Origin: Escherichia coli
GTDB taxonomy: Bacteria > Pseudomonadota > Gammaproteobacteria > Enterobacterales > Enterobacteriaceae
Assembly: GCF_041886205.1 (NCBI RefSeq)
Contig: NZ_CP169029.1
Length of the DNA stretch: 64,000 nt
Strand: one strand, 5' to 3'
Shown here: positions 55,255 to 55,385 of the stretch, one piece after another
Numbering within the stretch: the first letter of the stretch is position 1
Layout of the letters: each line of letters starts with the position of its first letter
The notes under the pieces: generated by a model
The model's input: only the letters and a program-made list of their open reading frames with translations
What the model was told of the DNA's origin: nothing
Databases searched by the model: none
Made by a program: the position numbers and the translations under genes

Positions 55255-55385
55255 AACGATTTACTCGTCGTATTTCAAGTTGCATGTGCTGCGGCTACGT
55301 TCGTTCACCCCAGTCACTTACTATTGTAAGCTCCTGGAGTTCACTCGCTTGCCGCCTTCCTGCAACACGAAATCCATAGAGTAAA
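55255..55385. repeat. ERIC/IRU element (enterobacterial repetitive intergenic consensus)
   Basis: cgttcaccccagtcacttact and tgtaagctcctggagttcac match the ERIC2 / ERIC1R core sequences (one orientation reverse-complemented); sits in the ydiK-ydiJ intergenic region. Boundaries approximate. Confidence 0.6.

Follow-up and report, generated by a model that had tools for sequence, protein, structure and literature searches.

What is the palindromic sequence that separates the divergently oriented genes ydiK and ydiJ in Escherichia coli, and has it become part of their control region or does it merely reside there? ERIC elements are non-autonomous MITEs, imperfect palindromes of 127 bp dispersed in the intergenic DNA of enterobacteria. 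This family was already known in 1990-91, and the copies that E. coli K-12 carries have been catalogued, almost certainly including the one located between ydiK and ydiJ. Descriptions of the family, under the names ERIC, IRU and RU-1, are due to Sharples & Lloyd (1990), Hulton et al. (1991) and Wilson & Sharp (2006), as relayed in PMC2229807 and PMC3184786. As one more copy of a family known for so long, the ydiK-ydiJ element is of little importance; the question concerns the place that it occupies.

A full-length ERIC element

The window that we analysed is a stretch of 64,000 nucleotides of the E. coli contig NZ_CP169029.1 (RefSeq assembly GCF_041886205.1), in which the ERIC/IRU element extends from 55260 to 55385, with the plus strand serving here as an orientation label. 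It is full length (126 nt versus the 127 nt of the consensus) and was delimited by end-to-end alignment with five other E. coli copies, those of the yafP-prfH, psuT-yeiL, ybhI-ybhJ, yajO-dxs and fbaA-pgk intergenic regions. These alignments include both termini and reach beyond the primer-like core, with 86-89% identity over 96-97% of the query for the last four copies and 86% for the yafP-prfH copy. The latter sits on a plasmid-borne chromosomal segment. The ydiK-ydiJ element and all five fetched copies are intergenic, with annotated genes on both sides. A blastn search with 55260-55385 found 48,893 places in 5425 E. coli genomes, with a median of 10 per genome, and an nhmmer profile search matched the element at E=1e-36, a value obtained with a profile whose seed contains this same copy.

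The ERIC core CACCCCAGTCACTTACTNNTGTAAGCTCCTGG occurs a single time in the window, against a shuffle expectation of 0.00, and the central conserved core at 55302-55344, where the ERIC2 site adjoins the ERIC1R site, likewise has a chance expectation of 0. Using the sequences that the literature gives for this standard primer pair, the ERIC2 site maps to 55302-55323 on the minus strand, with 2 mismatches, and ERIC1R to the plus strand from 55324, its 5' 14-mer (55324-55337) carrying 1 mismatch and being followed by one substitution and a 1-nt deletion. Being adjacent, the two sites constitute the arms of a central inverted repeat and not the outer ends of the element. The outer arms are located at 55260-55284 and 55361-55385; they pair with each other, measure 25 nt each, lie 76 nt apart and are 76% complementary. 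The element begins with TTTACTCG and ends with GAGTAAA, where the consensus has TATACTCG and GAGTATA, so that its termini read TTTAC...GTAAA versus TATAC...GTATA in the family, both TA dinucleotides having been altered by a compensated change. The ancestral insertion site contains TTAA, and the right flank has been replaced by a 61-bp segment, which makes a TA target-site duplication unreadable.

The region 55260-55385 is thus confirmed as a full-length ERIC/IRU copy, an element of an already known kind, which displays all family features that can be tested here apart from the terminal TA and the target duplication. The original prediction, made from the sequence of the window, had placed an ERIC element at 55255-55385: the element was correctly recognised and its left limit was set 5 nt too far to the left. 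The primer-site arms on which that prediction relied are indeed recognisable, the resemblance to the consensus extends beyond these short cores along the entire element, and the location between divergent genes agrees with the gene annotation in 5423 E. coli genomes.

The ydiK-ydiJ spacer

The element lies in a spacer of 388 bp (55086-55473), whose ancestral form measures 213 bp. To its left, ydiK (53973-55085, minus strand, a 370-codon open reading frame) encodes an AI-2E family transporter, as annotated in matching genomes, and to its right, ydiJ (55474-58530, plus strand, 1018 codons, also identified by annotation) encodes a D-2-hydroxyglutarate dehydrogenase (function in PMC9504171). A 1.2-kb query across the spacer matched 5423 of 5426 complete E. 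coli genomes, in which the flanking genes are annotated as ydiK and ydiJ, and the divergent arrangement was universal among the ydiJ upstream regions fetched from 80 species. The spacer of K-12 MG1655 (1,768,686-1,769,073) is also 388 bp long, and its annotation carries no repeat feature at this place.

Several parts of the spacer are conserved. A Shine-Dalgarno-like sequence of ydiJ, AGGAAAGGG, can be read at 55457-55465 on the plus strand and its GGGTC core is conserved. The block ACGCAAACGAT, directly left of ERIC, ranks with the most strongly conserved stretches of the spacer. Further left, the conserved block GAAAAAAATGTGGTACAA (55219-55236) is found at ~20 bp from the predicted PurR box described below in 73 of 81 species, and could be a promoter element or the site of a second factor. 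Inspection by eye gave no support for this block as a CRP, sigma-54 or sigma-28 site, nor as the start of an upstream open reading frame, a TGA following directly after the ATG in most genera. Between 55000 and 55560, a sigma-70 scan found no promoter-like site and no consensus match in the spacer, and a terminator scan found a sole terminator-like site, inside ydiJ, and none flanking ERIC. Candidate -10 and -35 boxes read by hand near the conserved blocks are weak. Data from four transcriptome papers yielded no usable start site for either gene.

Long and short alleles

The spacer exists in two forms in E. coli, which together account for 5416 of the 5423 genomes carrying the locus. The long allele, counted by its 61-bp segment, is present in 4255 of 5426 complete genomes, and in 4254 genomes the copy at this locus is the best ERIC match at an identity of at least 90%. 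A probe for the short-allele junction detected 1161 genomes, including those of strain 536, of an O25b:H4-ST131 strain and of avian pathogenic strains; ATCC 25922 also has no ERIC at this locus. We take all these strains to belong to phylogroup B2.

Alignment of the two forms shows that 185 bp of the long allele, made up of ERIC and, after it, a 61-bp single-copy segment (55386-55446), stand opposite 10 bp, AATCTCTCAT, in the 213-bp spacer of the short allele. This companion segment is found only together with ERIC, is absent from the short allele and occupies one place in each of the 4255 genomes (a megablast count of 3752 genomes was an artefact, as the O157-type copies, with 4 mismatches, have no exact 28-mer). 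It contains a hairpin with a 7-bp stem, CTTTCAG (55396-55402) and CTGAAAG (55420-55426), and is bracketed by CATCAC direct repeats at 55390-55395 and 55444-55449. Since the genome counts of ERIC and of the 61-bp segment match within one (4254 versus 4255), no intermediate allele, with either ERIC or the 61 bp alone, is evident. We also considered whether the companion could be an ERIC that had decayed or lost an internal part, and set this origin aside for want of support: local alignments on both strands with the ERIC consensus and with elements from Buttiauxella noackiae (L079), Enterobacter sp. JUb54 (L056), Enterobacter genomosp. O (L034) and another Buttiauxella (L082) were no better than those of 1000 dinucleotide shuffles (best p = 0.05), and an ERIC profile HMM gave no match to the companion at E<=10. 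By eye, the segment bears some likeness to a mini-element of B. noackiae and to the tail of the Enterobacter sp. JUb54 element.

The polymorphism is therefore one of ERIC plus a linked 61-bp segment and not a clean ERIC indel, which makes "ERIC present or absent" too simple a description of this locus. The variability between strains that had been predicted for the element does exist, ERIC being present in ~78% and absent in ~21% of complete E. coli genomes, whereas the simple insertion or excision of ERIC that such variability might evoke does not describe it.

Which of the two alleles came first can be addressed by comparison with related species. Among 80 related-species loci, 46 have spacers of 190-216 bp and 12 of exactly 213 bp, and the Citrobacter species with exactly 213 bp match the short allele base for base, including AATCTCTCAT. 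A short allele derived by deletion can be set aside in view of this shared sequence and length, found in Citrobacter and ~45 other species; because all of them share its layout, the short 213-bp allele is, judged from these comparisons, ancestral and the long allele derived. Within the genus, Escherichia sp. MOD1-EC7003 has the short allele, and the long allele occurs with identical boundaries in E. albertii, E. whittamii and one divergent representative labelled "E. coli".

In comparison with E. albertii, ERIC diverges by 5.6% and the companion by 8.2%, versus 25-34% at third codon positions of the flanking genes. This low divergence seems to fit constraint better than a purely passive passenger, with a recombination tract as the alternative. 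We do not take it as proof of selection on ERIC, given that the low-divergence zone also takes in the remainder of the spacer together with ~150 nt at the start of either gene, and recurs in the comparison with a short-allele species.

Recurrent insertions

A profile made from ten ERIC copies was used to search the ydiK-ydiJ spacers of other species and revealed ERIC-family elements in Enterobacter genomosp. O, in opposite orientation, in Enterobacter sp. JUb54, in Buttiauxella massiliensis and B. brennerae (L082 and L084), where they belong to a different subfamily and occupy a different gap, in B. noackiae, which has a full copy and a mini-element of ~57 bp, and in Citrobacter amalonaticus (L015), whose copy is split by an 85-bp internal insertion. 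These elements differ in their flanks, orientations or subfamilies, which indicates separate arrivals of the family in the spacers of Enterobacter, Buttiauxella and Citrobacter. The copies of the two Enterobacter species are located at the very insertion point of the Escherichia ERIC, and unrelated insertions are found within the same few bases in Salmonella (~50 bp) and in three Citrobacter species (~89 bp). All insertions fall within two non-conserved gaps of an otherwise conserved spacer. What this locus shows is limited to a permissive and repeatedly used insertion site.

A predicted PurR operator at the junction

The left end of ERIC coincides with a predicted operator of the purine repressor PurR. 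We searched for the 16-bp PurR consensus ACGNAAACGTTTGCNT with a weight matrix built from 28 published sites (Cho et al. 2011, PMC3159470), which themselves score between 11.8 and 25.6 bits, with a median of ~20. By matrix score, the sequence AGTAAATCGTTTGCGT, at 55250-55265 on the minus strand, corresponds to this motif with 18.5 bits; 9 of the 28 published sites score lower, and within the 64 kb only the operator through which purR regulates itself, at 21162, does better. Ten of its bases belong to the conserved flank (55250-55259) and six to the ERIC terminus (55260-55265), such that the first six bases of the element are positions 1-6 of the operator. Four of these six differ from the short allele, whose score of 12.2 bits exceeds that of a single published site out of the 28. 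The conserved block ACGCAAACGAT can be read as the strong half of this predicted operator. Elsewhere, the site scores 11.3 bits in Citrobacter, 14.7 in Salmonella and 17.1 in Enterobacter, and it equals or exceeds the weakest published score in 71 of 82 enterobacterial spacers.

PurR has been seen to occupy this region in vivo in K-12, a long-allele strain: among the ChIP-chip peaks of Cho et al. (2011, PMC3159470) is one named ydiJ/ydiK, obtained in the presence of adenine, at 1,766,545-1,767,225 of U00096.2, an earlier version of the K-12 genome. After conversion of coordinates by an offset of +1976 derived from rprA, the predicted PurR box (K-12 1,768,894-1,768,909) falls ~40 bp from the centre of the peak and the spacer fills the peak, whose width of ~680 bp does not locate the site. 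In the peak entry, the motif columns are empty and the log2 signal is 1.08, seen only with adenine (PMC3159470). The predicted operator thus offers a concrete candidate location for a published PurR region that came without a reported motif.

One regulatory reading of these observations is that the ERIC terminus was co-opted as the outer half-site of the operator, so that strains with the long allele would hold PurR with higher affinity and repress ydiJ and/or ydiK more strongly in the presence of purines than strains with the short allele. In its favour, the operator spans the junction and gains several bits from the element, PurR occupies the spacer in a long-allele strain, and the junction sequence is identical in E. 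albertii while E. whittamii keeps the same score. Moreover, the A-to-T change at position 2 of ERIC, specific to this copy, raises the score from 15.2 bits, the value for a consensus terminus, to 18.5 bits. However, this change is mirrored by a compensating one at position 126, which points to upkeep of the palindrome and not to selection on the operator, and random 4-mers placed at the four replaced operator positions score as well in 13% of cases, so the gain could be due to chance. The two Enterobacter insertions at the same spot even act in the opposite direction, lowering the PurR score from ~17 to 7-10 bits, depending on the pseudocount. The ChIP signal is modest and devoid of a reported motif, and neither ydiJ nor ydiK is among the regulated genes named in the searched parts of the main text of Cho et al. 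(PMC3159470); a later paper citing that work states that YdiK is regulated by PurR. On balance, we hold the co-option of the terminus to be a tentative and rather unlikely reading.

RNA folding and the ydiJ leader

The palindrome could alternatively act as RNA. Folded as plus-strand RNA, the element forms one long hairpin of -39.2 kcal/mol (z = -3.65), and as minus-strand RNA one of -56.1 kcal/mol (z = -5.49). Among 13 ERIC copies drawn from four genera, 97.3% of pair cells retain the palindromic pairing, as opposed to only 26-40% in slid controls; 6 pairs have changed on both sides and the covariation score was reached by none of 500 shuffles.

Whether the hairpin is ever made in RNA depends on where transcription of ydiJ begins. 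The conserved upstream blocks all lie left of ERIC and only 27 bp of ancestral sequence separate the insert from the ydiJ start codon, so that the ydiJ promoter most likely lies to the left; in that case the leader of ydiJ would contain both ERIC and the companion, which are thus probably transcribed. In a model of this 257-nt leader, ERIC and the hairpin of the 61-bp segment fold as separate domains. That the insert would mask the ribosome-binding site of ydiJ can be discarded, the local pairing of the Shine-Dalgarno sequence being the same in long and short leader models.

ERIC might be conceived as a cis-regulatory hairpin in the 5' leader of ydiJ, altering the half-life or translation of the mRNA, for instance by being cut by RNase E or RNase III or by stabilising the transcript from its 5' side. 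The stability of the plus-strand fold, its persistence as a separate domain in the leader model and the low divergence from E. albertii are in agreement with such a role, as are the effects of ERIC RNA on transcript stability reported in Yersinia (PMC2229807, PMC3184786, PMC10969869). Nevertheless, transcription through the element is deduced from the position of conserved blocks, the more stable fold belongs to the other strand, which no plausible promoter would transcribe, and the unchanged pairing of the Shine-Dalgarno sequence speaks against an effect on ribosome access. The maintenance of pairing could equally mirror requirements for a palindrome at the DNA level. In addition, the Yersinia mechanism concerns elements downstream of genes and is not simply transferable, because the ydiK-ydiJ copy lies on the 5', control side of ydiJ; the influence on mRNA stability of adjacent genes evoked in the original prediction is subject to the same caveat. 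We consider a leader function of this type unlikely.

Far less probable still is that ERIC represents a minus-strand gene for a small or antisense RNA with a transcript of its own. This idea draws on the very stable minus-strand RNA and on two sub-threshold Rfam hits covering the whole element on that strand, V_AS5 (RF02818; 36.9 bits, E=2e-6), an RNA family from Vibrio, and Ysr49 (RF02766; 27 bits), one from Yersinia. Yet both scores are far below the gathering thresholds of 96 and 95 bits, respectively, at which the search of the locus gave no match; ERICs also occur in vibrios and yersiniae, so these hits probably reflect ERIC-derived sequence in the two families, and ERIC is flanked by neither promoter-like nor terminator-like sites. 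Finally, a chance palindrome or another repeat of the REP/BIME type endowed with mere primer-like cores, instead of an ERIC, is refuted by the full-length similarity to five ERIC copies, both termini included, and by the chance expectation of 0.00.

Discussion

Our analyses lead us to consider, with good confidence, the ERIC/IRU copy between ydiK and ydiJ as a fixed and no longer mobile passenger that is likely to have side effects, and not as a dedicated regulator. The comparisons show that ERIC landed in the control region shared by ydiK and ydiJ, right at the outer border of a conserved operator of the PurR type, and that together with the 61-bp segment, to which it is always linked in Escherichia, it makes up a derived long allele. 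This allele is now the form of most E. coli as well as of E. albertii and E. whittamii, and about a fifth of E. coli retain the ancestral 213-bp allele. Two side effects could follow from this position. At the DNA level, the first six bases of the element, by serving as operator positions 1-6, would raise the predicted match to PurR; at the RNA level, ERIC, probably transcribed with the leader of ydiJ, is predicted to form a long hairpin of its own there.

A bolder proposal can be formulated, according to which the ERIC terminus upgrades a weak ancient PurR site, the polymorphism causes heritable differences in the purine-dependent control of YdiJ and/or YdiK, and the low divergence reveals selection on the arrangement. 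We deem this doubtful. The locus nonetheless provides a natural pair of alleles in which the terminus of a MITE changes the predicted strength of a repressor site, with K-12 and most E. coli on one side and strains such as 536, ST131 and ATCC 25922 on the other. If the difference in PurR control is true, this would be a neat case of a member of a regulon rewired by a bacterial MITE; if it is not, what remains is an ordinary fossil repeat lying in one of the permissive gaps of a control region that is otherwise conserved.

The element can be compared with several known systems. With the ERIC/IRU/RU-1 family it shares its length, its sequence from end to end, the central inverted repeat and the inverted outer arms, as well as its intergenic site, its multi-copy nature and its presence/absence polymorphism between strains. 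Unlike the family, it has both terminal TA altered, it shows no clean target-site duplication or empty site, owing to its coupling to the 61-bp unique segment, and it is located on the 5', control side of a gene and not in a 3' co-transcribed spacer. The ERICs involved in mRNA decay in Yersinia, for which RNase E-dependent destabilisation of the co-transcribed upstream mRNA has been reported (De Gregorio et al. 2005, via PMC2229807, PMC3184786 and PMC10969869), belong to the same family and have the same potential for a long RNA hairpin if transcribed, in which case orientation would matter; by contrast with them, the ydiK-ydiJ copy would sit in a 5' leader. The likeness of its minus strand to RF02818 (V_AS5) and RF02766 (Ysr49) is a weak one, scored with covariance models over the whole element, and, being below threshold, does not make it a member of either.

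Regarding the predicted operator, AGTAAATCGTTTGCGT is identical to the PurR operator of glyA, AGGTAATCGTTTGCGT (PMC3159470), at 14 of 16 positions and its score is within the published range; it differs from the published PurR operators in not being listed as a motif and in having six of its 16 bases supplied by the terminus of a mobile element. For the idea of an operator completed by an element, the Correia elements of Neisseria (CREE/NEMIS), MITEs that lie near the 5' ends of genes and can supply them with promoters and IHF sites (PMC2229807, PMC3184786), are, by analogy, the nearest parallel. The concept is alike, but the sequences are unrelated, and whereas the motifs of Correia elements are internal to them, the operator predicted between ydiK and ydiJ would be a hybrid of host flank and element terminus.

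Insertions in the ydiK-ydiJ spacer and ERIC copies elsewhere

The spacer between the divergent genes ydiK and ydiJ (window 55086-55473) has received insertions in several genera other than Escherichia. Among the ydiJ upstream regions fetched from related species, Salmonella enterica subsp. arizonae and diarizonae (L046 and L061) carry a GC-rich insertion of ~50 bp, and Citrobacter spp. (L014, L017 and L019) one of ~89 bp, each just after CGATTA. These insertions are unrelated, and they are positioned at the same few bases as the ERIC element of Escherichia (window 55260-55385). 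The ERIC family itself is represented by two size variants in this spacer in further species: in Citrobacter amalonaticus (L015, spacer 155-356), a copy is split by an internal insertion of 85 bp, and in Buttiauxella noackiae (L079, spacer 307-363), a mini-element of ~57 bp keeps both ends, its core being missing.

When the ydiK-ydiJ copy was used as query against complete E. coli genomes, most of the listed genomes devoid of an ERIC at this locus, such as ATCC 25922, showed only 3-5 ERIC matches per chromosome, and those having it mostly showed 8-14. Lineages may differ in their ERIC content. A copy also occurs on the 100-kb plasmid pHNAH212872-2 (NZ_CP104632.1; L003, 1501-1632), in a stretch that appears to have been captured from a chromosome and contains pepD, prfH, a truncated rtcB, yafP and dinB.

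Conserved sequences around the element

To the left of the predicted PurR operator (the PurR box, window 55250-55265, minus strand), the block at window 55219-55236, GAAAAAAATGTG(A/G)TACAA, is nearly invariant between genera. In 73 of 81 species its distance to the PurR box is 19-22 bp, and it may serve as a promoter element or as the site of a second factor. An open reading frame of 52 codons (window 55226-55384) starts with an ATG in this block, runs through the ERIC and ends with a TAA in its last bases. In most other genera, this ATG is directly followed by TGA. The frame has no obvious ribosome-binding site and is, for this reason, probably not translated.

Divergence is low at the 5' ends of both flanking genes. 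In the comparisons of the window with L010, L011 and L013, ydiK and ydiJ both show 0-5 differences per 50 third codon positions over their first 150 nt, against ~7-31 further into the genes. Constraint on the 5' ends is one possible cause of this drop, which is found in every comparison within Escherichia, and a shared recombination tract is another.

Over the whole window, the best score of the PurR matrix (22.5 bits) belongs to the known autoregulatory operator of purR, AGGTAAACGTTTGCCT (21162-21177), which is among the sites used to train that matrix. It is enclosed by an Rfam match to STnc550 (21118-21508).

Layout of the window compared with K-12

The K-12 gene order is broken in this region, window 1-64000 being composed of five K-12 blocks in a different order, with breakpoints near 10865, 12171, 29508-29628, 35749-36516 and 47738-48505. 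An IS3-family insertion sequence of 1.3 kb (10865-12171), with an ALIL frameshift pseudoknot inside it (11720-11836), adjoins a tRNA pair (12372-12526) that corresponds to the K-12 valV-valW position; an Rfam match to HPnc0260 (12245-12407) overlaps this tRNA region. Within 28800-29800, the match to lhr stops near 29508 and the K-12 yniB/hxpB region (1,809,293) resumes at 29628, leaving a stretch of ~120 bp between them; a search of 5426 complete E. coli genomes found no sequence that reaches across this junction. At 35749-36516 there is an IS1-sized gap of 768 bp, where the K-12 coordinates overlap by 9 bp. Finally, an IS1B-like copy (47738-48505) joins K-12 positions 1,791,963 and 1,775,650, an arrangement implying that ~16.3 kb, from within ydiF to within rflP, have been lost. 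A layout rearranged in this way and rich in IS1 suggests that the genome is Shigella-like.
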